This document shows, piece by piece, positions 9,172 to 26,800 of a DNA stretch of 64,000 nucleotides. The DNA is taken from the IMG/VR virus record IMGVR_UViG_3300028025_002046, positions 30,589 through 94,588 of that record; one strand, 5' to 3'. Position 1 is the first letter of the stretch. Every line of letters starts with the position of its first letter. The stretch comes from a virus. The notes below the pieces were generated by a model, which was not told the DNA's origin, did not search any database, and saw nothing but the letters and a program-made list of their open reading frames with translations. The position numbers and the translations under genes were made by a program.

Positions 9172-9521
9172 TGCTTAAAAAGATTGGTTGGCTTATTTTG
9201 TTATCTTTATGCTTATTTAGCTTTCAAGCACTGTTCTTTGCTGTCATTTCTACGTTATTTCTGTAATACCTGGCAAAATAGCAAATCTGAAAAAATTTTT
9301 ATTTTCCATATTGGAGAAAATCTGAATATTTTGAATAAGTGTATGATACATACCCTAGGGTAGTGCTACCAGGGTTTCGTAGTGAGCACACATCCCCCTA
9401 CTACCAGCTAAATACAGAGCTTCGATCTGTTATCAATTCGTTACACAAATAAGCGTGTTTGTGCTTGCTAAATGTCTGCCTACTACCCTATAATTAATAC
9501 ATAAAGAGAAAAGGAAAACAA

Positions 9522-9695
9522 ATGACTAAGGTTCTATCGGTTCTATCACTAATCGCTCACGCAGTAGCATTTCTAGTTGCTGTCTATGTAATGGTTCTAG
9601 ACAAAGAAGGTAACTATGGTTATCTACTTGTTTTGGCAACCTTCGTTACCCTGCCAGTAACCATAATTCTAGTAGCAAACAAACTAAGCAAGTAA
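9522..9695 (+). CDS. 57-aa two-TM membrane protein
   Basis: AAGGA RBS; MTKVLSVLSLIAHAVAFLVAVYVMVL...YLLVLATFVTLPVTIILVANKLSK. Confidence 0.65.
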   Translation: MTKVLSVLSLIAHAVAFLVAVYVMVLDKEGNYGYLLVLATFVTLPVTIILVANKLSK

Positions 9696-9705
9696 AGGAA
9701 AACAA

Positions 9706-9831
9706 ATGAGCAATTTCAAACTATACCTATACACCGTTGATGGCGATGCCGTTACCTCAATGATTCACGTTGATGATGTTGAAGAATTCTTGCTTGAACA
9801 TCCTGATGCCGTGCTAACTAACCGTAGATAG
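9706..9831 (+). CDS. 41-aa acidic microprotein (paralog of 10906-11043)
   Basis: AAGGA RBS; YTVDGDAV...EEFLLEHPDAV. Confidence 0.7.
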   Translation: MSNFKLYLYTVDGDAVTSMIHVDDVEEFLLEHPDAVLTNRR

Positions 9832-9861
9832 TTATCCACAGGATAGCAATAGTTATCCACA
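9832..9861 (+). promoter_or_regulatory. DnaA box pair (9832, 9853)
   Basis: TTATCCACA twice, 21-bp period. Confidence 0.75.
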
Positions 9862-9943
9862 GGCGGTACCCAAAAATAACGGTTTGGTAACGAAACGTGT
9901 TATGTGTCGTTATAATGTCTGCCTATGTGCTTATAATTGACCT

Positions 9944-10093
9944 ATGAACGAAATCAAATGTGTAGTATGTGAAGACAAAGCAACCGAACTAGCCCTTGAT
10001 GTTTGGGGAGCAGACTTAGAGATTTGCGACAAGCAAGAGTGCTATGACGAAATTGCTGATGGTGATTGGATACACACAAAGCCACTGGCATAA
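9944..10093 (+). CDS. 49-aa Zn-finger-like microprotein, leaderless
   Basis: CVVC...CDKQEC; ATG 7 nt after TATAAT. Confidence 0.65.
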   Translation: MNEIKCVVCEDKATELALDVWGADLEICDKQECYDEIADGDWIHTKPLA

Positions 10094-10140
10094 TGTCTGC
10101 CCTATCAACTAAACTAATAACATCTAACAAAGGAAACTAA

Positions 10141-10263
10141 ATGGCTAACTACTCAGTATCAAGATTCAACGAACTAATGCGTATCGCTAAGAGTGATGAG
10201 TATATGAGTGAGAGTGAGTTCAATGAACTAATGGCTATCTTCAAGATTCGTGGGTATCACTAA
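10141..10263 (+). CDS. 40-aa microprotein (paralog of 12218-12340)
   Basis: MANYSVSRFNELMRIAKSDEYMSESEFNELMAIFKIRGYH; AAGGA RBS. Confidence 0.75.
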   Translation: MANYSVSRFNELMRIAKSDEYMSESEFNELMAIFKIRGYH

Positions 10264-10462
10264 TGGTTGAATGGATCATCTACCTATTTGGCTTATGGCT
10301 AATAGCGGTTATTCTTACTCAGTAAACTAATCGGCGTGTCGTCTTGACAAATGCCCCCGAAAGGGGGTACCAAAAATAACGGTTTGATAACGACACTACG
10401 ATATGACTTGCATAATGTCTGACCCTGTGCTTATAATTGAGGTATAAAGAAAGAGGTTCCAA

Positions 10463-10744
10463 ATGACTTACTACAACTACCGCCAAAACAACTCGGGTGG
10501 CTCGTTCTCTGACCCTGCCCTAAATGTTGTCGTCAAGGCAAATAGCCCTGCTGAGGCAGATGCGATTGCCATCACTAAGGGTATCTACTTTGACCCTGAG
10601 TTTGAGATTGATTGCGATTGCTGTGGTAACCGCTGGTATCCTGCTACTGAATACACTGCCTCAGATACCATTCCTGCTGTATCAGATTGGGATTGCCAAT
10701 GGGCTATCTCTGATGGTGTGTTTGCTCAGATAGTTGTTGAGTAG
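10463..10744 (+). CDS. Conserved phage hypothetical protein (QNNSGG motif family)
   Basis: YRQNNSGGSF...VKANSPAEA...GIYFD....DCDCCGNRW. Confidence 0.75.
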   Translation: MTYYNYRQNNSGGSFSDPALNVVVKANSPAEADAIAITKGIYFDPEFEIDCDCCGNRWYPATEYTASDTIPAVSDWDCQWAISDGVFAQIVVE

Positions 10745-10905
10745 GGGAAACCCTACTTGATACACACCTAAAAATGTGGGTACCCAAAAATAACGGTTTG
10801 ATAACGAAGCTTAATAAATGTGTAAAATACGGCGTGTCGCTACCTAAAATGTCATACCCCCTTGCTATGCTTACAGGGTAAGCAAAAAAGAAAAGGAAAT
10901 TGAAA

Positions 10906-11043
10906 ATGAAAAACGAACTAAAGAAGTGGCAACTATTCGAATACACCATTGACGGAGATGCTGTCGTTTCGTCAATCTACTACCTAGACATTGCGGAATT
11001 CCTAAAGGAACACCCTGAAGCAGTGCCAACTAACCACCGCTAA
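10906..11043 (+). CDS. 45-aa microprotein (paralog of 9706-9831)
   Basis: YTIDGDAV...AEFLKEHPEAV. Confidence 0.7.
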   Translation: MKNELKKWQLFEYTIDGDAVVSSIYYLDIAEFLKEHPEAVPTNHR

Positions 11044-11160
11044 AAGAAAAGGAAATTGAAATTGATAACACTAACTTTTGAAACTTGGGAAGAATTTGAT
11101 AACGCTCTAAGCGGTATCACTAGCCTAGTAATCGCTACTAATCCAGACCCTACTAAATAG

Positions 11161-11192
11161 TTATCCACAACTACTTATCCACCTGTGGATAA
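11161..11192. promoter_or_regulatory. DnaA box cluster (11161 +, 11175 + with 1 mismatch, 11184 -)
   Basis: TTATCCACA, TTATCCACC, TGTGGATAA. Confidence 0.7.
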
Positions 11193-11321
11193 CTTTGGTA
11201 CCCAAAAATAACGTTTTGGTAACAAACTTAAAAAGACCTACGATTTACGGCGTGTCGTTCCCTAAAATGTCCTACCCCTATGCTATGCTGAAAGCATAAA
11301 GAAAAAGAAATGAGAAATCAA

Positions 11322-11456
11322 ATGGCAGTAACAATCAAACTAACCCCTAGCGAATCAAACCTATTCAACTGCGAAATCTGTGGCAACCCTGCCAACAAGA
11401 TGAAACTAATGAACAGCGGTTACTGCCAATACACTTGTGCCAGATGTGCCAAGTAA
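11322..11456 (+). CDS. 44-aa zinc-ribbon microprotein (paralog of 12839-12967)
   Basis: LTPSES..FNCEICGNPA...SGYCQYTCARC. Confidence 0.7.
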   Translation: MAVTIKLTPSESNLFNCEICGNPANKMKLMNSGYCQYTCARCAK

Positions 11457-11501
11457 AATGTCATAGCCTACTGATAAACTAAATATATAAACAAAAGGAA
11501 A

Positions 11502-11547
11502 TGAGCCTTAGCAAATAAACGAGTAATCGGTGAGCCTAAGCAAATAA
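11502..11547 (+). ncRNA. Candidate cis-regulatory RNA, copy 1 of a 46-nt element
   Basis: Identical to 13221-13266 except two mutually compensatory changes; lies between promoter 11459 and ORF 11580. Confidence 0.5.
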
Positions 11548-11579
11548 GTTCCACTAACAAAAAAAGAAATGAGAAATAA

Positions 11580-11843
11580 ATGAACATCAACGAAATTCGC
11601 GAACAAGGTATCGGTTCAAACTTCAAGGTTATCAACCAAGCAGACGGATACCAAAAGAATAACCGCCTATGGTTTGGTGAGTGTGTTGAGTGTGGTGAGA
11701 GAGTAACCAATTCAAACCTAAAAGGTGTTTGGGTTCACACAATAATCTTAGAGCGTGACGGCTTGTCTACTAGGTCTAGAGATGTTGATTACTGCCCTAC
11801 CGCTCAAATTCAGGGTAACCTAGTTCAAGAGATTTCAATCTAG
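11580..11843 (+). CDS. Hypothetical protein with CxxC
   Basis: ORF track; downstream of promoter 11459. Confidence 0.65.
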   Translation: MNINEIREQGIGSNFKVINQADGYQKNNRLWFGECVECGERVTNSNLKGVWVHTIILERDGLSTRSRDVDYCPTAQIQGNLVQEISI

Positions 11844-11905
11844 GCAAAAACTTTTTGCGACACGCCAGGGATAACTTGACAAATCGCAAAAATTTTGGTA
11901 CCCGA

Positions 11906-11921
11906 TCGAACACTTGTTCGA
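11906..11921. promoter_or_regulatory. Perfect actinobacterial LexA (SOS) box
   Basis: TCGAAC-ACTT-GTTCGA matches TCGAAC-N4-GTTCGA. Confidence 0.75.
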
Positions 11922-12020
11922 ATGTAACGATTAGGTTACGGAAGCTCAGAAACACCCCTAAATCTAACTAAAATGTCAGACCCCCCTGTTACAATGAATA
12001 CATAAACGAAAGGCAAACTA

Positions 12021-12170
12021 ATGAAAAGAATTCACACAGTAATGGCGTTCCTACCAAACAAGAAGAAGGTTATTGACCTAACCTATGACGCAGACAATTT
12101 TACAGTAGAGCAAGCAATCAAGTCTGTGGAAGACAAGGGCTTGACAGTAATTTCGGTTTACACAAACTAA
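12021..12170 (+). CDS. 49-aa hypothetical microprotein
   Basis: GAAAGG RBS; own promoter 11974. Confidence 0.6.
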   Translation: MKRIHTVMAFLPNKKKVIDLTYDADNFTVEQAIKSVEDKGLTVISVYTN

Positions 12171-12217
12171 AATGTCTGACCCTACTGCTAAAATGAAATC
12201 AAACGAAAGGAAGTCAA

Positions 12218-12340
12218 ATGGCTAACTACAATGTTGCGAGATACAACGAACTAATGAGAATTGCTAAGAGCAACGAATTTATGTCTGAAAGCGAATTCAA
12301 CGAATTGGTTGGAATAATGAAAATTAGGGGATACCACTAA
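12218..12340 (+). CDS. 40-aa microprotein (paralog of 10141-10263)
   Basis: MANYNVARYNELMRIAKSNEFMSESEFNELVGIMKIRGYH, 32/40 identical. Confidence 0.75.
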   Translation: MANYNVARYNELMRIAKSNEFMSESEFNELVGIMKIRGYH

Positions 12341-12411
12341 AATGGAATTCCTATCCCTAGCCCTAATCGCTTTCGCAATCTATCTATTTATCAATCAGTA
12401 AAGGAAATCAA

Positions 12412-12612
12412 ATGTCTGTAACTATCAAGCGTAATGTAATTCTATCGGTTCTAGCAACCATCTTCTTCTTCGTGGCTAAGTCTGGTCTTGATGAAATGGC
12501 TAAGTCTGGTCTTGACGGCTTGGGAATGTTCCCTTTCCTAATCGGTGGCTTTGGCTTTCTAGGCTTCTCTATCGGTCTGGTTATTCGTCTATGGGGGAAT
12601 GAGAAAGAGTAG
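12412..12612 (+). CDS. Small two-TM membrane protein
   Basis: Two hydrophobic segments; internal duplication AKSGLD x2. Confidence 0.6.
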   Translation: MSVTIKRNVILSVLATIFFFVAKSGLDEMAKSGLDGLGMFPFLIGGFGFLGFSIGLVIRLWGNEKE

Positions 12613-12615
12613 GAG

Positions 12616-12645
12616 TTATCCACACCCTACCCCAAGTTATCCACA
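12616..12645 (+). promoter_or_regulatory. DnaA box pair (12616, 12637)
   Basis: TTATCCACA twice, 21-bp period. Confidence 0.75.
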
Positions 12646-12656
12646 GGGGGTACCCC

Positions 12657-12724
12657 CCGAACACTTGTTCGAATTTACGTAGCTTACGTAGCTCCCCCCC
12701 AGCTTTTTTCGAACAAAAGATCGA
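12657..12724. promoter_or_regulatory. Two LexA boxes, 1 mismatch each
   Basis: CCGAACACTTGTTCGA 12657-12672; TCGAACAAAAGATCGA 12709-12724. Confidence 0.65.
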
Positions 12725-12838
12725 ATGTAACGAATTGGTAACAAAATGCGACACACCCCCTAAAAGCCTATAAAAACTAACTAAAATGTCAGACCCCCCT
12801 GCTATGCTTACTATGTAAGCAAAAGAAATGAGAAATAA

Positions 12839-12967
12839 ATGAAATACCTACTAAGCCCAGCCGAATCAGCAAAGTTTCCTTGCGACCTTTGTGGCAAGCC
12901 AGCAACTAACGCCTATGTAATGCGTTCAGGATTCGTTCGTTACAATTGTAATCGCTGTGTGTCGTAA
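12839..12967 (+). CDS. 42-aa zinc-ribbon microprotein
   Basis: LSPAES..FPCDLCGKPA...SGFVRYNCNRC. Confidence 0.7.
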   Translation: MKYLLSPAESAKFPCDLCGKPATNAYVMRSGFVRYNCNRCVS

Positions 12968-13028
12968 CGCTAAAATGTCTTACCCTAATGCTAAAATAAA
13001 TTATCAAACAAAAAGAAAGAGCAACTAA

Positions 13029-13208
13029 ATGCCAAAGCCAAGAATGACCAAAGCCGAAAAAGCAATCGTGAAAGCGGTGAACGCAATTGTGTTCGCAAAT
13101 CCAGAAATCCGTAATGGCGGAAAATTCCTAGACAGAGCCGCTTTCCAAAAGTTGCCAGACCAGACCCAGAAAATCTATCTGGATTTGGTAATCAACAAAA
13201 CATTCTAA
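13029..13208 (+). CDS. 59-aa basic hypothetical protein
   Basis: Manual translation MPKPRMTKAEKAIVK...; own promoter 12976. Confidence 0.6.
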   Translation: MPKPRMTKAEKAIVKAVNAIVFANPEIRNGGKFLDRAAFQKLPDQTQKIYLDLVINKTF

Positions 13209-13220
13209 AACCAAATGGCG

Positions 13221-13266
13221 TGAGCCTGAGCAAATAAACGAGTAATCGGTGAGCCTCAGCAAATAA
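13221..13266 (+). ncRNA. Candidate cis-regulatory RNA, copy 2 of a 46-nt element
   Basis: TGAGCCTGAGCAAATAAACGAGTAATCGGTGAGCCTCAGCAAATAA, intergenic. Confidence 0.5.
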
Positions 13267-13287
13267 AGCCCTAACGAAAGGAAAACT

Positions 13288-13449
13288 ATGACAGCCAAAG
13301 AAAAAATCGAATTGCTTACTCGCAAGCACGAAAGAGGTTTGGTTATCTCTAACCTCTACTCTGCCATTCTCGCCTGTGATGAGGATGCCGATGAATGTGA
13401 TGTTTGTCTAGGCTTGAAATACGCAATTCAGCGGATAGAGAAAATGTAG
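13288..13449 (+). CDS. 53-aa hypothetical protein
   Basis: GAAAGGA RBS; manual translation. Confidence 0.6.
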   Translation: MTAKEKIELLTRKHERGLVISNLYSAILACDEDADECDVCLGLKYAIQRIEKM

Positions 13450-13479
13450 TTATCCACAGGTAACCAAAAGTTATCCACA
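13450..13479 (+). promoter_or_regulatory. DnaA box pair (13450, 13471)
   Basis: TTATCCACA twice, 21-bp period. Confidence 0.75.
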
Positions 13480-13573
13480 GGGCGTACCCACCCCCCTAGA
13501 TCATTTACGTAACCAATTAAATACCCCCCAGATTATTTCCCATAATGTCCGACCCCCTTGTTATACTTATCGT

Positions 13574-13717
13574 ATGAACGATAAGACGACTTGCTACCAC
13601 TGCCAGAAGAACAACACCTACGCTTTGGCTACCCTAAAAAATGGCAATGTTATGCGTGTGTGTAACCTATGCTCATTTTACCTTGACGACCTAATCACCA
13701 ACCTAGTAATTCTCTAA
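13574..13717 (+). CDS. 47-aa Zn-finger microprotein, leaderless
   Basis: CYHC...CNLC; ATG 7 nt after TATACT. Confidence 0.6.
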   Translation: MNDKTTCYHCQKNNTYALATLKNGNVMRVCNLCSFYLDDLITNLVIL

Positions 13718-13881
13718 GAAAGGAAAATCCCTATGGATGACGACTATGTAGAATATGATGAGTGCTATGAAGAGCCAGGTGACTTCTTTTCATAGCACCA
13801 CCCTTCGGGGGGTACCCCCAGCTCCGCTGGGTCGTTTACGTTAAGAAGTATAATGTCTGACCCCCCTGCTATACTTGAGGT

Positions 13882-14073
13882 ATGAATTCACGAAAGGCTA
13901 ACTCTATGACCACTCCTAACCCTAACCCTAATGTCGTTGGCTATGTCTGCGTTTACTGCCAGAAACTCTACCTGCCAGAAGAAACCATCTGCCTAGATTG
14001 TAACGAGTATGACGGAATGGTGGCTCTAACCAAGAACATCTTGGCTATGTTTGCTGACCCTGTTGTTTCATAA
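13882..14073 (+). CDS. Zn-ribbon hypothetical protein
   Basis: CVYC...CLDCNEYDG. Confidence 0.65.
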   Translation: MNSRKANSMTTPNPNPNVVGYVCVYCQKLYLPEETICLDCNEYDGMVALTKNILAMFADPVVS

Positions 14074-14128
14074 TGTCTGTGGCTACTGCTAAACTTACCC
14101 TATAAACCCTATCGAAAGGCTATCCCCT

Positions 14129-14224
14129 ATGTGCGATTGCGAAGACCGTCCTTGCTGTGGCTGCTACTCTATGGCTGACCTATACTCCAACTCTGGAGAC
14201 CCCTATGACCCTAACAACTGGTAG
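14129..14224 (+). CDS. 31-aa Cys-rich micropeptide
   Basis: MCDCEDRPCCGC; GAAAGG RBS; own promoter 14074. Confidence 0.55.
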   Translation: MCDCEDRPCCGCYSMADLYSNSGDPYDPNNW

Positions 14225-14329
14225 GTAACTACCCCCCCTGGGGGGTACCCCCAGATCTAGCTCTTTTACGTTAAGAACTATAATGTCCTACCCCCAATGT
14301 ATAATTGTATTATCAACGAAAGGTAAACT

Positions 14330-14596
14330 ATGTTAGAAATCGCATTTGGAATGAAGCAGGTTCAGAAGAACTCAACCGAGAACCCTATGGTCGCTATGAT
14401 GGCTCTGGAACTGGAAGACACTCGCAACAACCTAAGCGAAGATGAGTTTTTAGAGTTTCTTGCTAAGTTTGCTCTCTCTATCTCTGCTATGGCTATCTCT
14501 CAAACTGTTCAGTTGTGTCTTGATGAAACCACGCAAGATGAGTTGGAGAAAACCATTTTGGAACTAATGGAAATGGAAGATTTAGGTAAGGAGTAA
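14330..14596 (+). CDS. Acidic helical hypothetical protein
   Basis: ORF track; own promoter and RBS. Confidence 0.7.
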   Translation: MLEIAFGMKQVQKNSTENPMVAMMALELEDTRNNLSEDEFLEFLAKFALSISAMAISQTVQLCLDETTQDELEKTILELMEMEDLGKE

Positions 14597-14735
14597 TCTC
14601 CTACCCCCGAAAGGGGGTACGCCCAGCTCCGCAGGGCTGGTTTACGTAGCTAATTAAAAAGCTCCCAAACCTTTTTGCTAAAATGTCAGACCCCCTTGCT
14701 ATAATTGTATTATCAACCAAAAGAAATGAGAAATA

Positions 14736-14936
14736 ATGAACGACACTCCGCTAGTAATCCGCTCTAATGAAGTTGTAAACAACCTACGAGATGAGAAACT
14801 AAACTACGACACCTCCTACGCAAAAGCGTTTGGTGCTTGCTGGGGAGTAATGACCGACGAGCAACGACTAATCGTTTTGGAATACTCGCAACGCCAAGCA
14901 ATAATTATCAACACACTAGGAGAAGAAATAAACTAA
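14736..14936 (+). CDS. Hypothetical protein
   Basis: ORF track; own promoter 14684. Confidence 0.65.
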   Translation: MNDTPLVIRSNEVVNNLRDEKLNYDTSYAKAFGACWGVMTDEQRLIVLEYSQRQAIIINTLGEEIN

Positions 14937-15115
14937 TGATGACACGCAAAGACTATGTAGCAACCGCAGAAATTCTAAATTCTTATGTTCACAATTTAGA
15001 CGCTCCAATTTTTGATTGCCTAGTTCAAGATTTTGTGGCTATGTTCGCAGAAGATAACGACCGCTTTCTAATTGATAAGTTTGAAGACGCTTGTTGGGGA
15101 ACGGCTAGGGAGTAA
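14936..15115 (+). CDS. Conserved phage hypothetical protein (MTRKDY...DNxRF...F..AC family)
   Basis: Start overlaps upstream stop; recognisable motif. Confidence 0.7.
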   Translation: MMTRKDYVATAEILNSYVHNLDAPIFDCLVQDFVAMFAEDNDRFLIDKFEDACWGTARE

Positions 15116-15224
15116 TCCCTGCTCCCCTGGGGGTACGCCCCCACCCCTAGCTCGTTTACGTAACGCATTAAATTTACCCTAGATTTATTCCTAAAATGTC
15201 TTACCCCTGATGTATAATAAAACT

Positions 15225-15395
15225 ATGAAGAAAAAGAAACCACCACTAGGCAAGGTCGCCAACGCTACTCGCAAGGCTCACGCCAAGGAATTGTTCCAGA
15301 GCCTTTTACTCAACAAGCACTTAGTCGTTACCCCTGCCAACCGCAAGGGTTCACGACAGAGCAACAACCAAAAAGCAATTAGGGAGAGTTACTAA
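15225..15395 (+). CDS. Basic leaderless microprotein
   Basis: ATG 7 nt after TATAAT; K/R rich. Confidence 0.6.
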   Translation: MKKKKPPLGKVANATRKAHAKELFQSLLLNKHLVVTPANRKGSRQSNNQKAIRESY

Positions 15396-15700
15396 TGGAT
15401 GAACTATTTATTGTAATCAACGACAAGGGATACGCTGTTGAGATGTGTCTTACCGAGCAAGAAGCGTTAGAGTGGATTGCTAAATTTGGTAACAAAAACT
15501 ATTCTATCGATTTGGATGTGGTGTGCTAATGAAAGTTTATGTAGTTATTGAGACTTGTTGTATGCACTTTTGTGGAGTATACAAGGACAAGGCTGAGGCT
15601 GATGCCTATGCCGAAGAGAATGACTATTCCGTCTATGAGTATGACCTTTAGTGTCATACCCTCACGCTATAATTGAAACACCCTAACGAAAGAGAAACTA

Positions 15701-16168
15701 ATGAAAGCAATTATCGAATCTAACTGTGTTTGTGAACCAGACGAAGAAAACCCTGAAAGCCTAAATTGCTACGGTGACTGCTGGGAATGGCAGAAAGAAG
15801 ACGTTCAGTGGATTATCGGTGAATGGGCAACTAAGAATGAAGTAGCCGAAGGACAGCCAATTCTAATTACTGGCACAAACATGAACTGGAACCATGTTTC
15901 AGGCTGGGCAACCGCAACACCAGAAACCATTCTCGATAAACTAACCTTGAACGGTGATTTTAGTTTAGAGTTTGACTTTGACCCTGATGAAAATACTTTC
16001 AATGTTGTTCGTCGTTCTCACGATGAAATGGGAGCGTTGTTTACTTTTGTAATCATGGAGCCATGCAACCAGTGTGGAGTAGGAATTCCACGAGAGATTT
16101 ATAACGAAGAACTAGGCATGTGTCTTGAATGTTCAAATGCTTACTTCAACCATGAGGATGAAGAATGA
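15701..16168 (+). CDS. Acidic hypothetical protein with C-terminal Zn finger
   Basis: ORF track; promoter 15652. Confidence 0.7.
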   Translation: MKAIIESNCVCEPDEENPESLNCYGDCWEWQKEDVQWIIGEWATKNEVAEGQPILITGTNMNWNHVSGWATATPETILDKLTLNGDFSLEFDFDPDENTFNVVRRSHDEMGALFTFVIMEPCNQCGVGIPREIYNEELGMCLECSNAYFNHEDEE

Positions 16169-16324
16169 TAGAGTTTGGAGTTATCCTAATAGCGATAGGT
16201 TTGGTTATCCTACTGAATCAGTAGATACCCCCCGAAAGGGGGTACGCCCTATCGATCAGCTGCTTTACGTAGCCATAATGTCAGACCCTAAATGTATAAT
16301 GGTATTATCAAAGAAAAGGAAACT

Positions 16325-17044
16325 ATGTCACTCATTCGCTCTAAAGACCGTAAAGTTGCTAACCAAGTAAACAAGGCTGGCAGTCAGGCTTCAATGGCTA
16401 ACACTTTTGGATTACCTAGTGGCAAGGCTTTTTCCTGCCCTGGGGCTACCTCGGTTTGTGAGACTATTTGTTACGCTGGCAAACTTGAAAAGGTATTCAA
16501 GGGTGTTCGCAATGTTTTGGTATCTAACTATGAGCAACTACTGGCAACCGATACTCTAGGCATGATTGCTTTGATTGACGAAATGATTCAAGACTTCAAG
16601 CAGGAATGTGAAAAGCGTAATGCCGATAAGTTATTCCGTATTCACTGGGACGGAGACTTCTTTAGCGAGGACTACACTAGAGCATGGAATTTTGTTATCC
16701 GCCTAAACCCTGATGTTCAATTCTGGGCTTACACTCGTTCAGACTTTGCTGTTCCAATTCTAATTGACATTCCTAACCTAGCCCTATACTTCTCTGCTGA
16801 TTCTGCTAACAAGACTTTGGCATGGGAACTAAAGCGTAAGTATGGTGTGAAACTTGCTTACCTCGCCAAAGACTTTGCTACAGGCAAGAGTGACTTCAAT
16901 GAGCAACAGGAAAAGTCTGCTGTTCCCTGCCCTGAAAACAACAAGAAGATTCCAATGATTAGCGAAAAGGGCAGTGCTTGCGTGATGTGTTCGCAGTGTG
17001 TGTTTGCTCGCAATGACATTCTGTTTAGTGCTACTAAAAAGTAG
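16325..17044 (+). CDS. Phage Gp88-like (radical-SAM-related) protein
   Basis: FGLP.G..FSCPGAT..C...CYA; FRIHWDGDFF; FWAYTR; CP...C..C..C. Confidence 0.75.
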   Translation: MSLIRSKDRKVANQVNKAGSQASMANTFGLPSGKAFSCPGATSVCETICYAGKLEKVFKGVRNVLVSNYEQLLATDTLGMIALIDEMIQDFKQECEKRNADKLFRIHWDGDFFSEDYTRAWNFVIRLNPDVQFWAYTRSDFAVPILIDIPNLALYFSADSANKTLAWELKRKYGVKLAYLAKDFATGKSDFNEQQEKSAVPCPENNKKIPMISEKGSACVMCSQCVFARNDILFSATKK

Positions 17045-17411: not shown

Positions 17412-17417
17412 TTCACC

Positions 17418-17445
17418 AATCCTGAGTATGATTTCAAACTGCTCA
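17418..17445 (+). ncRNA. H-type pseudoknot motif copy
   Basis: aatc-c-tgagta-t-gatt-tcaaac-tgctca; covaries with five other copies. Confidence 0.6.
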
Positions 17446-18509: not shown

Positions 18510-18970
18510 TGTTTGATGATGTAATCGCTATGGACATAGTGGAACAACTAACCGAAGAACAACTAGACCAACTAATCGCAATACTAGAAGGAGCAGGTTA
18601 CTAATGTTTATTCCAAACTTAGCAATACTACTAGACGAAATCAAACAGGCAGAGAAATCTTCCAAACTTGAAGGTGTTGTGTCTTACGCTAGTGGCTATG
18701 AAGATGGCTTGCGTATGGCATTAGACATTTTGGAAGGAAGGGTAGAGTAATGGAAAAGATTACTGTTAGTCTTAGGTTTGAATACTACCCTGAAGAAGAC
18801 CACGCAGAATTGTTTGAAGACATGACTGAAGATGAAATGATTCGCTATGCTAAAGAAATGGCTTGTGAAGATATAGTCAGTGGAGATGTTTGGGAATGGC
18901 TAGAAGTTTCGGTAGAGTAAAATGTCAGACCCTACCAGTATAATTAGACTATCAACGAAAGGAAACACTA

Positions 18971-19462: not shown

Positions 19463-19559
19463 CGCTCACCCCTAGGGGGTACCGCCCAAGATCCAAGCTG
19501 TTTACGACTATAATGTCAGACCCCCAATGTATAATGGAACTATCAACGAAAGGGAAACA

Positions 19560-19721
19560 ATGAGCGAGTATGTAGCAGTAGACATTTATGACCGTATGGA
19601 GGCTAACGCCAACGACCTTGGTGGTAGCGTTGAGGAAGACCTAGCAGAGATTCTTGCGTCTGGTGACCTAAGTGCTTTTGAAGACTACTTTGGCGACACA
19701 GACCCATTTGAATTCCTATAA
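19560..19721 (+). CDS. Very acidic microprotein
   Basis: RBS before ATG 19560; D/E rich. Confidence 0.6.
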   Translation: MSEYVAVDIYDRMEANANDLGGSVEEDLAEILASGDLSAFEDYFGDTDPFEFL

Positions 19722-19767
19722 TGTCCTACCCCACCTGTATAATAGAAACATCAACGAAAGGTAAAGA

Positions 19768-20247
19768 ATGAACGAGAATGAAAACACAGATAACATTGGC
19801 AATTTTGGTGAGTATAATGCTGTTCCTGTTGAACCAATAGTCCACCCTTCCCTAGCAAAATTGTATGACGAGATTGCTGACCTAAAAGAAAAGTTGGTTC
19901 ACTCAACTACCATTGCGAGCGAAGCACAAACTCGTTTGCGTGAACAGCAGAGCGAGTATCGTGAGAACGAGGGCAAACTTCAAGACATTCTAATTGAAGC
20001 ACTTGGAGATGAAGAAATTGACAAAGATGTAGCAGACAAGATTGCCGAACTCTATGGTCTTGACCTACGCAAGGTATTCTCTATCAACATTCAGGTTGTT
20101 GTAAATGTTGAAGTGTCTGCTCCTGTTGGAACTGACCCTAGCGACATTGTAGATAATGTTGGCTTTGGCTATGGCGGTATCACCTACTCTGGTATTGGTG
20201 ATTTGGAAAGCGACCATTGGGAAATTGACGACTGGGAAGAAGTGTAG
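19768..20247 (+). CDS. Acidic coiled-coil hypothetical protein
   Basis: ORF track; promoter 19722. Confidence 0.7.
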   Translation: MNENENTDNIGNFGEYNAVPVEPIVHPSLAKLYDEIADLKEKLVHSTTIASEAQTRLREQQSEYRENEGKLQDILIEALGDEEIDKDVADKIAELYGLDLRKVFSINIQVVVNVEVSAPVGTDPSDIVDNVGFGYGGITYSGIGDLESDHWEIDDWEEV

Positions 20248-20266
20248 GGTAAACCTTTCCCCTACC

Positions 20267-20293
20267 AGTGCTGGGTATCACTATAAACTACCC
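20267..20293 (+). ncRNA. H-type pseudoknot motif copy
   Basis: agtg-c-tgggta-t-cact-ataaac-taccc. Confidence 0.6.
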
Positions 20294-20457
20294 CCACATG
20301 GGCGTACCCCTCCCTGCCCCAAGATCCATTTACGATAGCTTTAAGAAATCTCCAGAAAATTCCCCAAAACTTTTTGCTAAATAGTATTGACAAACAGAGT
20401 GTTTGCCTGTATAATTAGACTATACACAAATCAACCACTAACAGAAAGAGAACCCCT

Positions 20458-21474
20458 ATGGCTCACGAACTAGAACAAGGCGAGAATGGCGAAGTTGCTT
20501 TTGCTTCGCTACGCCAACCTGCTTGGCACAATCTAGGCACTGTCTTTGAAGAGCAGGTCAATACAGCAGAGATGCTGAAACTTGCTCACCTTGATAATTG
20601 GAATGTTCGTCTTGAAGATGTAACCATTCCAGAAAACTTTGAGAGCGACAAAAACTATTCGTTCGTTACTCGCACTAACCCTTTTGATAACACCAAGAAT
20701 GATGTTCTCGGCGTTGTCGGTGAGCGTTATGTTCCCCTACAAAACGAAGACCTATTTTCGTTTGGCGACAACCTGCTAGACGGCGGTGGTCGTTGGGAAA
20801 CCGCTGGCTCAATCAAGGGTGGTCGTCAGGTGTTCGGCTCTATCGCTTTGGCTGATAGCATTACCCTAGACCCTAATGGTCGTGCTGATAAGATTGATAA
20901 CTATCTTCTAATCAACACTTCTCACGACGGAAGCATTGCTATTCAGGCAAGTATCACGCCTGTTCGTGTTGTATGTGCTAACACTCTCAACCTTGCTCTA
21001 TCTTCATTCAAGGGCAAGAAAGCAGCGAAGCAGACTTTCAAAATCCGCCACACTTCAACTGCCGAAGGTAAAATCGCAGTTGCTCGTGAAGCACTAGGTC
21101 TTGCCAAGACTTACCTAGACGAGTTTTCTCTTATGGCTAACGCTATGATTGAAAAGGAAATCACTAAGGCTGACTTTGATAAGATTGTCGCTCTTGCTTA
21201 CCCTGCTCCTGAAAAAGACGCTAAGGGTTCATTCAAGAAATACGACAGCAAGATTGACCTGCTAAACGACATTTATGTTGGGCAATTCAATGACACCATT
21301 TCTGGAACTGCTTGGGGAGCATACAACGCTCTAACCGAACGCCTAGACTGGTATCGCTCTGCTCGTGGTGGAAGCAACGAGAGTATCTACGCTTCTGCTT
21401 CTGGCTTTGACCCTGTAATCAACGCAGAGAAGAACCGCTTGATGAAGATTGTTCAACAGGTTGTAATGGCGTAA
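20458..21474 (+). CDS. DUF932 / TIGR03299 phage-plasmid-like protein
   Basis: AWHNLG; LGVVGERYVPLQNE; ETAGSIKGG; SHDGS; TPVRVVCANTL; RHT; GTAWGAYNALTE. Confidence 0.85.
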   Translation: MAHELEQGENGEVAFASLRQPAWHNLGTVFEEQVNTAEMLKLAHLDNWNVRLEDVTIPENFESDKNYSFVTRTNPFDNTKNDVLGVVGERYVPLQNEDLFSFGDNLLDGGGRWETAGSIKGGRQVFGSIALADSITLDPNGRADKIDNYLLINTSHDGSIAIQASITPVRVVCANTLNLALSSFKGKKAAKQTFKIRHTSTAEGKIAVAREALGLAKTYLDEFSLMANAMIEKEITKADFDKIVALAYPAPEKDAKGSFKKYDSKIDLLNDIYVGQFNDTISGTAWGAYNALTERLDWYRSARGGSNESIYASASGFDPVINAEKNRLMKIVQQVVMA

Positions 21475-21621
21475 GCCATTCTCCCTTGCTCCTGGCAGTA
21501 AAATGTCAGGGGTATAGGGGGTACCCAGCTATCGATCTTATTTACGACACACCTTACGATATCCCTATAATGTCATACCCTACCCTTATAATAGATACAT
21601 AACCCGAAGAAAGGAAAAGCA

Positions 21622-21807
21622 ATGCCTAAATACCAAATAGAAATGATGATTGAATTCTCTGGTGAGATTGAAGCAGACAACGAAGAACACGCAGAACAAC
21701 TTGCTTGGACGAGTTGGGGAGATACAATGGATAGCCCTATCGTTTATGACGGTGTTTATTCAATTGAAGTAGAAGCAGTAGACGAAGAAGAAGACGAGGA
21801 AGACTAA
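21622..21807 (+). CDS. Acidic microprotein (EA-x3-A family)
   Basis: EIEADNEEHAEQLA. Confidence 0.65.
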   Translation: MPKYQIEMMIEFSGEIEADNEEHAEQLAWTSWGDTMDSPIVYDGVYSIEVEAVDEEEDEED

Positions 21808-22052
21808 TGGGAGCAAGAATAAATCCAGACGACATTCAGTTTCGTAAAGACGCTGACTACTATATGGACCCTATCGGTCTAGCAGTCATCCTTATTGAAG
21901 AGATGATTGACTGGGGTATTGAACGAGACCGAATGATTGTTGAGAAACTACCAGAAGAACACATTTGGTATTTTGATGGTCTACTCCGTCGAACAGAAAC
22001 TATCCTAGACAGACTAGGTGTAGAGAACATTCCAGTAGTAGGTGATTGCTAA
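21807..22052 (+). CDS. Hypothetical protein
   Basis: ORF track; coupled start/stop. Confidence 0.6.
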   Translation: MGARINPDDIQFRKDADYYMDPIGLAVILIEEMIDWGIERDRMIVEKLPEEHIWYFDGLLRRTETILDRLGVENIPVVGDC

Positions 22053-22151
22053 TGAGTGATTGTATTGAGAATGATAACGGACGTTGTATGTTCTGTGGTG
22101 CTATAATGTCTGACCCTACCGCTATAATTGAAGCCTAACCAAAGGAGAACA

Positions 22152-22325
22152 ATGTCTAAAACCTATCAAGTAGAATACAATGCTGTCTATTGGGTAACTG
22201 CCAATAGCGAAGAAGAAGCAATTGAGTTGGCTATTGAAGAACACGAACAAATGCCTAATGGCGATTGGGAAGCAATGATAGACCCTTATGACAGCGACAA
22301 CTTCAACACACTAGGAGAGAAATGA
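22152..22325 (+). CDS. Acidic microprotein (EA-x3-A family)
   Basis: AGGAG RBS; WVTANSEEEAIELA. Confidence 0.65.
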   Translation: MSKTYQVEYNAVYWVTANSEEEAIELAIEEHEQMPNGDWEAMIDPYDSDNFNTLGEK

Positions 22326-22863
22326 CACAACTAGAAAGCCTACTAGAAGAAAAGGCAGAACTGCTTCAAGACTTTGAAGATGTAAAGAATATGCTAAGTG
22401 ATTCAGGACACGACCTATTCCTAAACAGGATAGATATGCTTGACAGTATGATTGAGATTGAGTTGAACAATGCCTAATTACATTATTGTTGCTACTAGAA
22501 AACAAGAGTTTGAGATTGATGCTGTTGATTTTCCAGATGAACAGGCTGCCCTTGCTTCTTTGGATAATTGGATTGCTGATGACTTTGAAGCATTTGCTAT
22601 TCAGGCAACTTGGGATTTTGAGGTGTTAGCAAATGACTAGACCTGCTTGTGCTTGGTGTGGTATGGATGAAATGGATGAGTATGCCTCATTCAACGGTAA
22701 AGATATTTGTATAGATTGTGCAGGAGAATAATGAGTTATAGCACTTGTAGAGAATGTCTTGAAGACTACCTAGATGAAGACCTAAATGATTTTATGGTTT
22801 GTTATGTATGTGACCACGAATGTGACGAAACCTGTAATAATCCCTGTAATGTAAAGGAAGCAA

Positions 22864-23055
22864 ATGAGTAAAAAGATAAACATCAAATTTGAATTGAACT
22901 ATGATTTGGAAGACCTACGCTTTATGGTGGGGGAAGACTTTCCAGAAGAACAATTTCGTGAACGAGTAATTGAATATGCTTTCCACGACCTACACGAAAT
23001 GTTGCGTAGCGATAGCGTAGATGCTTGGGCAGATGTGGAAGAAATCAATGAGTAA
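22864..23055 (+). CDS. Acidic hypothetical protein
   Basis: ORF track; AAGGA RBS. Confidence 0.6.
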   Translation: MSKKINIKFELNYDLEDLRFMVGEDFPEEQFRERVIEYAFHDLHEMLRSDSVDAWADVEEINE

Positions 23056-23245
23056 CGCTATGGGAGAAATCACAGTAGGCGAAGCGTATGAAGAAGGTTT
23101 CTATGATGCTAGGGCAAGTGTATTAGAACTAATAGATGAGTGGTATACGGAGTATAAATCAAGTTTAGACTTGCTACCCTTGCCAGTTGCGATTGGCTTT
23201 TTGAAACAGGCTATCTTAGATGCCGATGTTTTAGATATGGAGTAA
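23048..23245 (+). CDS. Hypothetical protein
   Basis: ORF track; AYEEGFYDA motif. Confidence 0.55.
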   Translation: MSNAMGEITVGEAYEEGFYDARASVLELIDEWYTEYKSSLDLLPLPVAIGFLKQAILDADVLDME

Positions 23246-23418
23246 CATCCACCCGAAAGGGTGGGTACCCCCAGTTAACATAATATAGTTAAACTAAATA
23301 ATTAATTACGAAAGCGGATTAAGATCCCCGAAATCTTTTCCCAGAAATTTAGCTTTTGCTATTGACAAATGAGGCGTTATGCCTTATACTTGTAATACAA
23401 CCCAAAAGAAAGAGAACA

Positions 23419-23931
23419 ATGCATACCCTACAATACATTGCAATTCAATCAGAAGATAAAGAGAGTGCAGCCAACACAGTAAAGAACCTACTAGAAGAAG
23501 AACTAAATCCTGGTTCGTCTTGGTATGACTGGTTCGTTGTAGGTGGAGGTCGCTTTGCTCCTAATCCAGAAGACCAGTATGATGACACCCATGAGACTGT
23601 TATCTCCTATGCAGATACCCCTGACATTTTTGATGAGAAAGTTGGAGACTGTATGAAATCCAAAGGTCGTGAGTATCAGGAACTCTATACAGATTACAAA
23701 CTAAATAAAGAAGAAATAGAGAAGACCTTTGAGGCTTGGAATGGCAACATGGAATTCTCTATGGCTCTCTATCCACTACGGAAGATGTTGGACATTGTTC
23801 AAGGACATTGGGATTACACATCTCGTGTATACGACATTACCAATTGGTCTACCAATACCCACCACATGAACAGAAGTCTAGCAGACGGAAACAAAAATTG
23901 GTTCCTTGTGCCTGTTGACTTTCACTTCTAA
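23419..23931 (+). CDS. Conserved phage hypothetical protein (WxDW..vGG.R ... vDxH family)
   Basis: WYDWFVVGGGRF; C-terminal VPVDFHF; sigma-A promoter 23362. Confidence 0.75.
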   Translation: MHTLQYIAIQSEDKESAANTVKNLLEEELNPGSSWYDWFVVGGGRFAPNPEDQYDDTHETVISYADTPDIFDEKVGDCMKSKGREYQELYTDYKLNKEEIEKTFEAWNGNMEFSMALYPLRKMLDIVQGHWDYTSRVYDITNWSTNTHHMNRSLADGNKNWFLVPVDFHF

Positions 23932-23970
23932 ACCTGCTATACTTATACTCCCACAAACAAAGGAAACGAA

Positions 23971-24171
23971 ATGGCTACATTTGAAGTCACTGTGACTTAT
24001 CACTTCGACACAACTTACGAAGTCGAAGCAGACAACTATGAACACGCAGAATACAAAGCCCTAGAAGAAGCAACCGAATGGAAGCCTTACTCATCTGAAA
24101 AGGGATACACCGAAGACTGGTATCAGGTAGAAGTTGAGCCAGCCCTGATTAGCGGAGAGATTGAAGACTAA
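23971..24171 (+). CDS. Acidic microprotein (EA-x3-A family)
   Basis: YEVEADNYEHAEYKA. Confidence 0.65.
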   Translation: MATFEVTVTYHFDTTYEVEADNYEHAEYKALEEATEWKPYSSEKGYTEDWYQVEVEPALISGEIED

Positions 24172-24596
24172 TGATATTAGTAGACAATTGGGTAGACACC
24201 TACAAGCCAATCAAGAATGAGAATAACGACTGGGGTGGAACCTACTCTGCCTTTGAAACCTATGGAACAGAACTAGACTTCGTATGGTCTAAGCCTAACA
24301 ATCTTGTTTGGACTGAGATTGACGGTGACGAGGGTAGTTACATTATCGCTGGCAAGCACATTGTAAATCGCCTACAATACTTTGTATGCGAAGTGCCTTG
24401 GGAAGATGAGAACCTTATGGTCGCTATCTCTGTTGAGCAAGAGTGTGAACTCTGTGGCGGAACAGGCGAGCAACCACTTGGAGAAGATGAAGTAGAAGAC
24501 TGCGACACCTGTGGTGGTCGTGGCTACTGGCAGGTCTATCCAGACACTATGGAAGAACTAGAAGCACTAATCGGGAAAGAGAGAGCAAATGGCTAA
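24171..24596 (+). CDS. Hypothetical protein with DnaJ-type CxxCxGxG zinc finger
   Basis: CELCGGTG...CDTCGGRG. Confidence 0.7.
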   Translation: MILVDNWVDTYKPIKNENNDWGGTYSAFETYGTELDFVWSKPNNLVWTEIDGDEGSYIIAGKHIVNRLQYFVCEVPWEDENLMVAISVEQECELCGGTGEQPLGEDEVEDCDTCGGRGYWQVYPDTMEELEALIGKERANG

Positions 24597-25280
24597 ATAC
24601 GTCAAGCACCTAAGCAACGAAGAACTAATGGCAAGAATAGCAGATGACCTAGTTAGTATGCATAATGATACTGGTATTCATCTTGGATACTGGGAGACGG
24701 CTATGGAACTTGTAGAACGTTTTTACCACGTAAATGTTGAAGTAATCGTAGGAGAGAAGAAGAACTATGAAAGCGTTTGAGAACCTTGCCTTTGACAGGG
24801 AGAACTTTGAGAGTTGGGTAGATGAAAGTCTACAGACCAGGCTTACTGATGAGCAGTGGGAGCGTGTCAAGGATGAACTTGACGGACGTGTAGAGAACTA
24901 CTTGGACCAGATGATTTACGACGTTGTGCTAGAGTTTAGGGAGGGAGCCTTCGATGAATAAGGACTGGGACCTAAACATCTTCTTCAAAGAAGTATGGGA
25001 TGAGAACGTAGAAGAGTATGTGCTTGAAGATGTGTTGACTATCAATCCTGTAGTCTACATGTATGACAGTAATGGTTCTAATAATCATTATTCAGATATC
25101 ATCTGGACCACTACCTTTGCAGAAGCACGTTACCTACGGAGCCAGTATCCAGAGAAAGAATACGGCTACGACTGGACTGACACCATTAGCAACTTCATAG
25201 AGATTGCACCACCTAGGCTGAAGTCTCTAGCCATGGCATTACCCAGTGCCTACGATTACAAGATAGACTTGGTGGGTTGA
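24589..25280 (+). CDS. Three overlapping acidic hypothetical ORFs (24589-24780, 24767-24961, 24954-25280)
   Basis: ORF track; translational coupling. Confidence 0.6.
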
Positions 25281-25413
25281 GACTACTCCTCATCAGGATA
25301 CGCTAAGGGGTTGGCGTATTCGGTGGTAGGTTGAGAGACGTTATTTCCTTTCACTCTTGACCTACCACCACAATTTTGGTATAATAGAAGTTACAACTAA
25401 ATACGGAGAACAA

Positions 25414-25608
25414 ATGACAAACGACGAAAACAAAGTAGCAGACAAGATTGGAAAACTTGTATCAGACCTAACATTAGACATTGAGCAGGTAGGACTTTAC
25501 ATTGGACGACAACCGAATGTAATTCTAAATAGATTAGAAATCATTACCGAGACAGCACGAGAAGAAAAGGAAGACCTACATTTGACCATTGACAATGATT
25601 GGCGGTAG
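25414..25608 (+). CDS. Hypothetical protein
   Basis: GGAG RBS; promoter 25357. Confidence 0.65.
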   Translation: MTNDENKVADKIGKLVSDLTLDIEQVGLYIGRQPNVILNRLEIITETAREEKEDLHLTIDNDWR

Positions 25609-25623
25609 GTGTATAATAGAACT

Positions 25624-25914
25624 ATGAACGAAACCACTATAGATAACAAATGTAACATCCTAGCAGAACTATGGATGGACTACCGAGATGATGTAAACTT
25701 TGATGACTTCATCAACTACGCTGACTTAGGTTTGCCATTGGCATACGCTATCAGTAATGAGATAGTCAAACTTACTCCACAGGCAGAGAAGTTTATCACG
25801 GAGGCTTTTGATTTGCTAGTAGCAAGTATGGGTCTAGAAGATACAGGCTTTGAAACTCTGGATGACATTTTCATGGAAGGCGATTTAGAAGCTTTCGAAG
25901 ATCCAGAAGAGTAA
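25624..25914 (+). CDS. Acidic hypothetical protein, leaderless
   Basis: ATG 7 nt after TATAAT; last gene of plus-strand block. Confidence 0.7.
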   Translation: MNETTIDNKCNILAELWMDYRDDVNFDDFINYADLGLPLAYAISNEIVKLTPQAEKFITEAFDLLVASMGLEDTGFETLDDIFMEGDLEAFEDPEE

Positions 25915-26800
25915 CCAGTGGATCCCCTGCAAAGGGGAGACCTGGGGTACCACATCTTATTCAATTTGTCAATAGCCAATTTATCCAATATAAAAAAGTA
26001 TTACGATAGCTTCAAATTTTCCCCATATTCTTTATATATATCACTATCAAAATAGATTACGATAGATCATATATTTTCCCATATTCATGTATCAGCCTAT
26101 ATAGTGTATATACCTATAGGGATATTACGATAACCTTTAGCTACCCCCGAAGGGCTGGCAGAGCCAGGGTATTACGAATGATAAGCAAAATCCCCTATAT
26201 AAGATACAACACCATATCGTTTGATATTGATTGATTATCTTTATTTATTTAAAAAAACATTACGATATTCGTTTATTTTTCCCCAAAATTGATATATTAT
26301 TGAGAATAATTATCATTAAGAATATACTTGACAAATGTGGATATATGTGCTAGGGGATAGGGGGCTATGGGAAAATGATTACGAGGCTTAAGATACATGA
26401 GCTCTATTACACATATATATTTCCCAAATCCATCTTATTGAGAATGAGTATCAACAACAGTAAGATCTTTGTGGATAACTCTGTGGATAAAACCTATCCA
26501 AAATAGCCTTTAAAGGGGGTATAGAGAGACTTTAATCTGTCTCTGAATGTTCTGGGGTATCGAATATTTGCTGTATCAGATAGGCTTGCAAAAGATCTTT
26601 TCCTAATACATCCCTATACTCTCCAGCTACATTTATTAGATATGTGGCATCAGGGAATATGATGTATTTGCTTTTATTAGCCATGTGTTTCTCCTTATAG
26701 GTTTATTATGTTATATAGGTATTACGAAGCTTCTTCGTTGTTCCCCGAAATTTCTAGATCCAAGATCTCTTCCATAGCAGTCTCTAAAGACTTAGGAATA
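25915..26800. repeat. AT-rich convergent region with no credible ORF: 7 TTACG repeats (6 followed by a C-tract), two Zur/Fur-like boxes and a DnaA box pair
   Basis: TTACG at 26001, 26057, 26125, 26172, 26260, 26379, 26722; TGTGGATAA at 26470 and 26482; TATTGAGAATAATTATCATTA at 26298; TATTGAGAATGAGTATCAACA at 26436. Confidence 0.7.

Follow-up and report, generated by a model that had tools for sequence, protein, structure and literature searches.

The window analysed here is a 64,000-nucleotide (nt) stretch of viral DNA, bases 30589-94588 of the 94.6-kb IMG/VR contig IMGVR_UViG_3300028025_002046, which is classed as linear and ~88% complete and has a GC content of ~42%. A block of small genes on its + strand carries an array of 27 hybrid promoters, in which the -35 hexamer is replaced by an invariant ATGTC element at a fixed distance from the -10. 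On balance, we think that these promoters are read through the host regulator PafBC, which would tie the block to the single-stranded DNA (ssDNA) alarm of the cell. Paired DnaA boxes and two SOS (LexA-type) boxes lie in the same block, and the phage probably couples the block genes to host DNA-status sensors, judging from the sites found.

The TGTC promoter array and its distribution

The promoters were counted by a regular-expression scan of the whole 94.6-kb genome with A[AG]TGTC-N12-TAnnnT. All 27 (CTAWAATGTCnKACCC-N6-TATAAT; a -26-type element plus -10, without a -35) were on the + strand between 9471 and 22128. The AATGTC elements of promoters 1-14 start at 9471, 9914, 10092, 10414, 10848, 11266, 11457, 11972, 12171, 12785, 12974, 13544, 13852, and 14072, and those of promoters 15-27 at 14282, 14682, 15195, 15650, 16277, 17096, 17521, 18231, 18921, 19512, 19720, 21569, and 22105. 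Outside the block, the pattern occurred at background level (16 matches on the + strand and 3 on the - strand), and one further + strand match at 17994 looked random. An earlier note on this DNA, which had listed 27 TGTCnn-N10-TAnnnT promoters at the cassette junctions, was therefore correct on this point. The same promoters were recovered by a pattern-free repeat search as families of 14-20 copies, with an element length of ~50 nt.

TGTC was invariant in 27/27 promoters and lay 12 nt upstream of TAnnnT in every one. The -10 was TATAAT in 16/27 and was preceded by TGn in 12/27, while the -35 position of all 27 read nCTAWA, with no -35 hexamer. Downstream of each promoter there was a conserved start region followed by an AAAGGA ribosome site and the ATG of a small open reading frame (ORF). 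Many promoters without a strong hairpin were located within the 3' end of the preceding ORF. We hold with high confidence that the array promoters are real: the register is fixed, every copy has a ribosome site and an ORF behind it, and the design is shared throughout the clade. At least 27 mini transcription units make up the block.

A scan of IMG/VR with the strict promoter motif yielded 49 stretches, 28 of which contained 8-22 copies within ~4-15 kb. The richest of these loci had a GC content of 39-44%, similar to this phage. Among the 289 distinct promoter copies at the 28 loci, ATGTC and its register to the -10 were kept and the spacer varied. We rejected a reading of the motifs as simple leftovers of duplication, since flanks vary and the register is fixed over the 289 distinct copies from 28 loci. 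The same loci contained 64 DnaA boxes vs. 2.5 expected, 5 SOS boxes vs. 0.08, 109 copies of GCGTGTC vs. 20, and 47 RTAAC repeats (described below). Conservation in related phage contigs, named in the earlier note as a check, was thus found for the promoters and for the DnaA, SOS, and RTAAC sites. A syntenic relative, designated G001, was ~67-84% identical in aligned regions, and 12 of its promoters read TGTC[AG]GTGG, which we take to be the RecA-NDp core. This core was reportedly described as TGTC[AG]GTGG by Gamulin et al. in 2004. The array was internal in a second relative, G005; the G001 contig was cut inside the array. Three cultured BE phages (Wakanda, BillNye, and Blueeyedbeauty) gave background counts only and have no promoter array.

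Canonical promoters were present in the same genome. The block contained three perfect + strand copies of TTGACA-N17-TATAAT (12/12 matching positions; 17187-17215, 20387-20415, and 25589-25617) and two near-perfect ones, also on the + strand: TTGACA-N17-TATACT at 23362-23390 and TTGACC-N17-TATAAT, with TG ahead of the -10, at 25357-25385. Another 14 matches to TTGAC[AC]-N16-18-TA[TC]A[AC]T, for which the chance expectation was ~0.1 per strand, were found on the - strand outside the block, at contig positions 28093 and 58447-90665 (~27.9-60.1 kb of the window), with replication and other genes downstream. Ten canonical promoters were detected on the - strand of G001. Canonical promoters serve most genes outside the TGTC array. 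The -10 and the region downstream of it are common to canonical and ATGTC-type promoters, which fell into one repeat family. The -26 type is therefore a distinct, adaptor-type class, and the genome has two promoter classes: an ordinary housekeeping-sigma class and a class with the -35 replaced by an element centred near -26. Since the canonical class drives most other genes, the block may belong to an activator-dependent class rather than to the immediate-early one.

The host is actinobacterial, as the earlier note had proposed. Besides a class Ib ribonucleotide reductase, the phage encodes WhiB, an actinobacterial-host marker (37431-37730, - strand), and a WhiB gene was also present in 5/5 relatives tested (6/6 genomes with this phage). 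The suggested tie to Streptomyces phages of the BE cluster (Stanwilliamsviridae) is real yet distant, with 55% identity of DnaE. Near-identical DNA was found in freshwater, aquatic, and subsurface metagenomes from 13 studies; the contig therefore represents an uncultured freshwater actinophage. A high-GC Streptomyces-like host was rejected in view of the GC content of 42% and of the freshwater and subsurface samples of these 13 studies. No match to the block was found by megablast among 50,697 phage records.

DnaA and SOS boxes and the candidate host lineages

The paired DnaA boxes announced in the earlier note were recovered as 12 perfect TTATCCACA boxes in six pairs, five within 9400-26800 and one at 7522-7542. 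In the block, TTATCCACA occurred 10 times vs. 0.1 expected from 200 dinucleotide shuffles. Three pairs were direct with 21-nt spacing and were located on the + strand at 9832-9861 (AGTTATCCACAGG twice, directly behind a stop codon), 12616-12645, and 13450-13479. One pair, at 11161-11192, was convergent. The remaining two, on the - strand, had 12-nt spacing and marked the borders of the block. The pair at 7522-7542 lay at the left divergent boundary and was followed by an AT-rich run and a TTGACA...TGnTACCCT promoter; the pair at 26470-26490 lay at the right boundary, with an orthologous site in G001 (5821). At both block ends, in this phage as well as in G001, a TGTGGATAA pair or a remnant of it was present.

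DnaA-box clusters outside oriC are known from the datA locus of E. coli and from plasmid and phage origins. Like these, the phage has close-set consensus boxes off the chromosomal origin, with one pair beside AT-rich, iteron-like repeats; unlike them, it has six dispersed pairs, mostly at gene boundaries. The repeats belong to an AT-rich non-coding zone in which + and - strand transcription converge (25915-26530, or 25915-26730 in a wider delimitation). Seven ATTACGA repeats occupy 26000-26727, and the right DnaA pair adjoins them. In G001, a ATTACGAAC repeat was found next to a DnaA box. Because it is non-coding and AT-rich and combines the seven repeats with a DnaA pair, the zone at 25.9-26.5 kb looks like a candidate phage replication origin.

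LexA boxes, also claimed in the earlier note, were confirmed at two places in the block. GAAC-N4-GTTC occurred twice vs. 0.2 in shuffles, once as the perfect TCGAAC-N4-GTTCGA. This perfect actinobacterial SOS box, TCGAACACTTGTTCGA, was located at 11906-11921, upstream of the TGTC at 11974. The other, CCGAACACTTGTTCGA (12657-12672), matched the palindrome at 15/16 positions and was part of a composite at 12616-12680 that consisted of a DnaA pair, GGTACC, the SOS box, and TTTACG. A matching composite was found in G001 at 88490-88553, with two DnaA boxes, a spacer, TCGAAC-N4-GTTCGA with another centre, and ATGTAAC-N6-GGTAAC. Outside the block, a perfect SOS-type palindrome, TCGAACAATAGTTCGA, was observed at 46434-46449 inside coding DNA (- strand ORF 46169-47947); its G001 equivalent was TCGAACAAAAGTTCGA.

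To relate these sites to possible hosts, we used five small freshwater actinobacterial genomes (1.1-1.6 Mb) from the match list of the phage NrdE protein. NrdE was 74-77% identical to proteins of many Actinomycetota, with freshwater metagenome-assembled genomes, Microbacteriaceae, and Aquiluna among the top matches; NrdE is conserved and therefore indicates phylum and habitat, not the host. The phage WhiB protein had no confirmed relative among genome contigs. All five genomes encoded two adjacent WYL-domain ORFs of ~315-360 amino acids (aa) each, arranged as pafB-pafC. In each of them, exactly one TGTC-N12-TAnnnT was found ~80 nt before the RecA domain, and in 3/5 the element read AATGTC, as in the phage. 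GAAC-N4-GTTC was detected within 450 nt upstream of recA in none of the five, and the PafBC-type promoter in all five. In these streamlined candidate genomes, recA thus appears to be controlled by PafBC and not by LexA.

LexA itself was encoded in 5/5 genomes with the upstream operator TCGAACAyyTGTTCGA, the same type as the phage SOS boxes. In one of them (G008), the lexA operator was TCGAACACTTGTTCGA, identical to the phage box at 11906. The DnaA box clustered in the candidate genomes (4-6 boxes) was TTATCCACA, not the high-GC TTGTCCACA, and the clusters flanked dnaA in 4/5. The sequence and the flanks of these host boxes (A at -2, G at -1, G at +1, G at +2; AG...GG) were the same as in the phage AGTTATCCACAGG units, and pairs 10-12 nt apart occurred in the candidate genomes and in the phage alike. 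Because the boxes are identical to host-lineage sites, host DnaA and LexA are the probable binders of the DnaA-box pairs and SOS boxes of the phage. These sites stand at unit borders in the left third of the block, where they may form protein roadblocks or insulators, be part of an origin, or have a local modulating effect. Since the boxes lie at unit borders and not over promoters, a roadblock, insulator, or origin role is suggested more than classical repression.

Candidate readers of the promoters

According to chromatin immunoprecipitation sequencing (ChIP-seq) by Müller et al., the in vivo consensus of PafBC is tGTCgg(N10)tA(N3)T, in which PafB reads GTC and no -35 is present; PafBC is placed between sigma region 4 and DNA, which is called sigma adaptation (PMC8635444). 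It is activated by ssDNA (PMC11804915). The phage promoters have exactly this geometry and likewise have no -35 hexamer, so the resemblance to PafBC sites pointed out in the earlier note was borne out. WYL, PafC-type helix-turn-helix (HTH), and sigma-70 region 2 domains were not found in this phage contig, and neither WYL nor PafC-type HTH was found in four relatives that were 90-100% complete. We consider PafBC the best single reading for four reasons: the architecture matches exactly, relatives have RecA-NDp-like variants, no WYL- or PafC-like phage protein was found, and the candidate lineages possess PafBC and carry this element in front of recA. Protein-DNA interactions, the timing of expression, and host identity are what we infer from these comparisons of sequences.

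The PafBC (RecA-NDp) promoters of Mycobacterium and other Actinobacteria also have TGTC 12 nt upstream of TAnnnT, an invariant GTC, and no -35 (PMC8635444). They rely on the -10 of the housekeeping sigma, and the same element stands at recA of the candidate host lineages. In contrast to PafBC promoters, which belong to repair genes, the 27 phage copies precede small genes of no assigned role; the CTAWAA and ACCC flanks differ from the host consensus, and dependence of the phage promoters on PafBC is predicted. Host RNA polymerase with the housekeeping sigma would use the near-consensus -10 through host PafBC bound at the invariant ATGTC (TGTC at the -26 position). As PafBC is switched on by ssDNA, the block would be expressed when infection, DNA-end processing, or phage replication raises the ssDNA alarm. 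PafBC requires ssDNA, and the replication genes stand behind canonical promoters; the block may therefore be switched on once DNA ends have been processed or phage replication has begun, and not among the first genes transcribed.

A full-text literature search found no paper linking PafBC or RecA-NDp to phage promoters. We know of sigma adaptation by PafBC as described so far only for the DNA-damage regulon of the host itself. If PafBC does read the array, this phage would be, to our knowledge, the first known virus that borrows a WYL-type ssDNA sensor to time its genes, and the system would be a host-factor counterpart of T4 MotA/AsiA. The damage response of abundant lake actinobacteria would be turned against the cells during infection. 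Several hundred natural promoter variants would then be available for dissecting PafBC recognition.

Several observations weigh against reading by PafBC and against a joint role of the three site types. Only TGTC and the spacing are common to 27/27 copies. Base 5 of TGTCnn was A, T, or C and never G, and base 6 was G in 15/27 and T in 12/27. The conserved CTAWAA upstream and ACCC downstream of TGTC are outside the PafBC consensus and specific to the phage. With TATAAT in 16/27 and TGn in 12/27 copies, the promoters might fire without an adaptor. The candidate host genomes were selected by NrdE likeness alone; in these five genomes, ATGTCnG-N10-TAnnnT was weakly above control (27 vs. 15), a difference of little weight. 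The two SOS boxes do not overlap a promoter, the next TGTC lying ~50 and ~110 nt downstream of their ends, and may just as well be a variant form of the boundary hairpin. The array of G005 has the promoters and neither DnaA nor SOS boxes, which shows that the three site types need not occur together. As G005 lacks DnaA and SOS sites and G001 lacks the GGTAC...TTTACG module (see below), the promoter is clade-wide and the other sites are sub-lineage add-ons. We regard as tentative, and put below even chances, the wider proposal that an entire clade of lytic actinophages from fresh water has placed its accessory-gene arm under three host regulators of DNA status simultaneously, with 20-30 promoters per genome read only via PafBC, with DnaA and LexA operators that gate or insulate the units, with the host damage response serving as the phage 'go' signal, and with amplified DNA that also drains the regulators.

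A phage-encoded factor might read ATGTC instead, either WhiB on sigma region 4 or an unrecognised small protein. The array would then consist of middle promoters like those of T4, in which a MotA box at -30 is combined with a -10 and sigma is appropriated by AsiA/MotA, a comparison also named in PMC8635444. T4 middle promoters do resemble the array in having a -10 with a non-canonical upstream element in place of the -35 and in forming a separate class beside canonical promoters. The phage-specific CTAWAA and ACCC flanks are in favour of such a factor, WhiB is encoded in every clade genome, most phage proteins have no family, and the canonical promoters could express the factor first. T4, however, brings its own adaptors; with no candidate found in this phage, the host would have to provide one. 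No WYL, PafC-type HTH, or sigma domain was detected, BE phages carry WhiB as well (Wakanda gene 142) yet have no array, and a phage factor leaves unexplained why core and spacing match PafBC sites, including TGTC[AG]GTGG in G001. We consider a phage-encoded reader unlikely, though the most serious of the alternatives. It is distinctly less probable that the extended -10 alone suffices, with the upstream part being a shut-off operator or chiefly a cassette-moving recombination sequence, as in the T4-type PeSL (promoter-early stem-loop) cassettes (PMC2839356, PMC4122927). The -10 is near consensus with TGn in 12/27 copies, the block turns over fast, contigs of a relative show a promoter-to-promoter joint from 15208 to 17562, and PeSLs provide a precedent with a matching layout: small ORFs bracketed by a conserved promoter and a stem-loop in a fast-changing (hyperplastic) region, where indels appear to end at repeats. 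PeSLs differ in belonging to another phage lineage and host phylum; the promoter of this phage is not of the plain sigma-70 early type, and its boundaries also bear host-type DnaA and LexA sites. Recombination, moreover, depends on length and does not call for an invariant 5-mer in a fixed register with the -10. Across 289 distinct copies this register is kept, while the sequence between ATGTC and the -10 is free to vary.

The earlier note had also suggested a DNA sponge and a long terminal repeat. If the sites were mainly decoys, amplified PafBC sites (27), DnaA boxes (12), and SOS boxes would titrate the host regulators, blunt the damage response, and block chromosome initiation. High-affinity consensus sites are indeed present in many copies, and several DnaA pairs stand where no promoter or origin function is obvious. 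We give this explanation very little credence: each PafBC-type site has a ribosome site and an ORF at a fixed distance behind it and hence is a working promoter, the SOS boxes number only two, and G005 has no DnaA or SOS sites. We likewise find it very improbable that a long direct terminal repeat with a host-takeover module, as in SPO1, T5, and the BE1 Streptomyces phages, makes up or includes the block. The likeness to those modules is that one arm of a large lytic phage holds numerous tiny genes behind numerous strong promoters; the BE phages are distant kin, and BE1 members have ~11-kb repeats (PMC5764925). Unlike in those modules, no terminal repeat is demonstrated for this block, which is single-copy in the 94.6-kb contig. 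The complete relatives G001 and G005 close as circles: both have an exact overlap of 127 nt at their ends, as is usual for circular k-mer assemblies, and neither shows a long repeat. Wakanda, BillNye, and Blueeyedbeauty have no array. On the evidence of assembled contigs, the terminal-repeat claim is thus unsupported.

Boundary elements, gene content and neighbouring genes

Other motifs of the earlier note fared unevenly against shuffled or simulated controls: enrichment was found for TTATCCACA, GAAC-N4-GTTC, the RTAAC repeats, GGCGTGTCG, and TTTACG, but not for GACAC or GTAC. Six RTAAC-N6-RTWAC repeats were located on the + strand at 9876, 10376, 10790, 11208, 11924, and 12727 (range 9876-12742), vs. 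0.18 expected for the + strand of the block in Markov-1 simulations, and they were conserved in G001. GlnR sites follow the consensus gTnAc-n6-GaAAc and MtrA sites are direct repeats, both loosely defined. The repeat itself is real and conserved, but its assignment to GlnR or MtrA is unsupported, the likeness to these consensus forms being only partial. Four GGCGTGTCG elements (10333, 10831, and 11249 on the + strand and 11858 on the - strand; range 10333-11866) were found vs. 0.1 expected in dinucleotide shuffles, and two of them start 18 nt ahead of a promoter ATGTC. The + strand of G001 contained five GGCGTGTCG elements, and four of these kept a like distance of 17-19 nt. The proposed WhiA sites failed: GACAC was not enriched in the block (33 vs. 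25.6 in shuffles and 23.7 when scaled from the rest of the genome), and nothing links the longer, enriched GGCGTGTCG to WhiA. No CRP boxes were found in the block.

Ten boundary modules on the + strand between 12649 and 21546 consisted of a GC hairpin (e.g., CCCCCGAAAGGGGG), GGTAC, a second hairpin, and TTTACG; they were terminator-like without a U tract. Scored as GGTAC-N10-30-TTTACG, these ten copies represent the GTAC/TTACG module reported before. TTTACG occurred 17 times in the block vs. 7.4 expected. The module was rejected as a general regulator site since it is absent from G001 and is probably part of lineage-specific hairpins. About 10/27 junctions folded as strong GC hairpins without a U tract (z ≤ -2.7), and a scan for hairpin-plus-T-run terminators gave no excess (14 vs. 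14.9). GTAC was ~three-fold depleted in the block (19 vs. 55 in shuffles) and was similarly depleted elsewhere in the genome; many GTAC sites that remain fall in junction palindromes of the GGGGTACCCC type.

The block had been described as a 16.5-kb counter-oriented region. Its orientation holds, with the flanks transcribed on the - strand, but the true + strand stretch is somewhat longer (~7.7 to 26.1 kb). It is a fast-changing accessory-gene block of ~55 small ORFs, mostly of 40-100 aa and behind AAAGGA sites (9522-26055, + strand). A family could be assigned to 2 of the ten largest block proteins, both encoded on the + strand: a GP88-family protein (PF17338, E 2e-52; phrog_1392) at 16325-17044 and a DUF932 protein (PF06067) at 20458-21474, behind a canonical promoter. 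Homologues in G001 were found for 23/55 block ORFs with a median identity of 50%, vs. 59/78 and 67% for the rest of the genome. Paralogous cassettes were observed at 10129-10263 vs. 12206-12340 and at 10779-10900 vs. 11197-11318 (72-75% nucleotide identity in both pairs), and a third pair at 11310-11456 vs. 12839-12967. Several of the paralogous cassettes encode proteins of ~40-50 aa with paired CxxC motifs.

In contigs from two other studies, a clean 133-nt deletion (22729 to 22863) had removed one 46-aa ORF, and a contig of a relative showed the promoter-to-promoter join from 15208 to 17562 mentioned above. Many of the cassette-sized joints seen against contigs of other samples were weakly supported and came from distant relatives with short sides. 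RNA-library contigs covering 17.1-19.4 kb come from a relative, possibly from its DNA. Cassettes may also be gained and lost by recombination at the repeated promoters and hairpin boundaries.

Outside the block, the phage encodes the class Ib ribonucleotide reductase NrdEF, ThyX, and a deoxynucleoside monophosphate (dNMP) kinase, as well as a DnaB-type helicase, a primase, and a RecA-like protein. A pyrimidine-dimer DNA glycosylase (27839-28336), a ferritin-like protein (36096-36545), and the RecA-like recombinase (51446-52462), all on the - strand, are DNA-damage-related functions adjoining a block that may answer to the damage alarm. Two collagen-repeat tail-fibre proteins are encoded at 627-5635 on the - strand, the larger of them with an Mtd-like N-terminus and an endosialidase-chaperone C-terminus.

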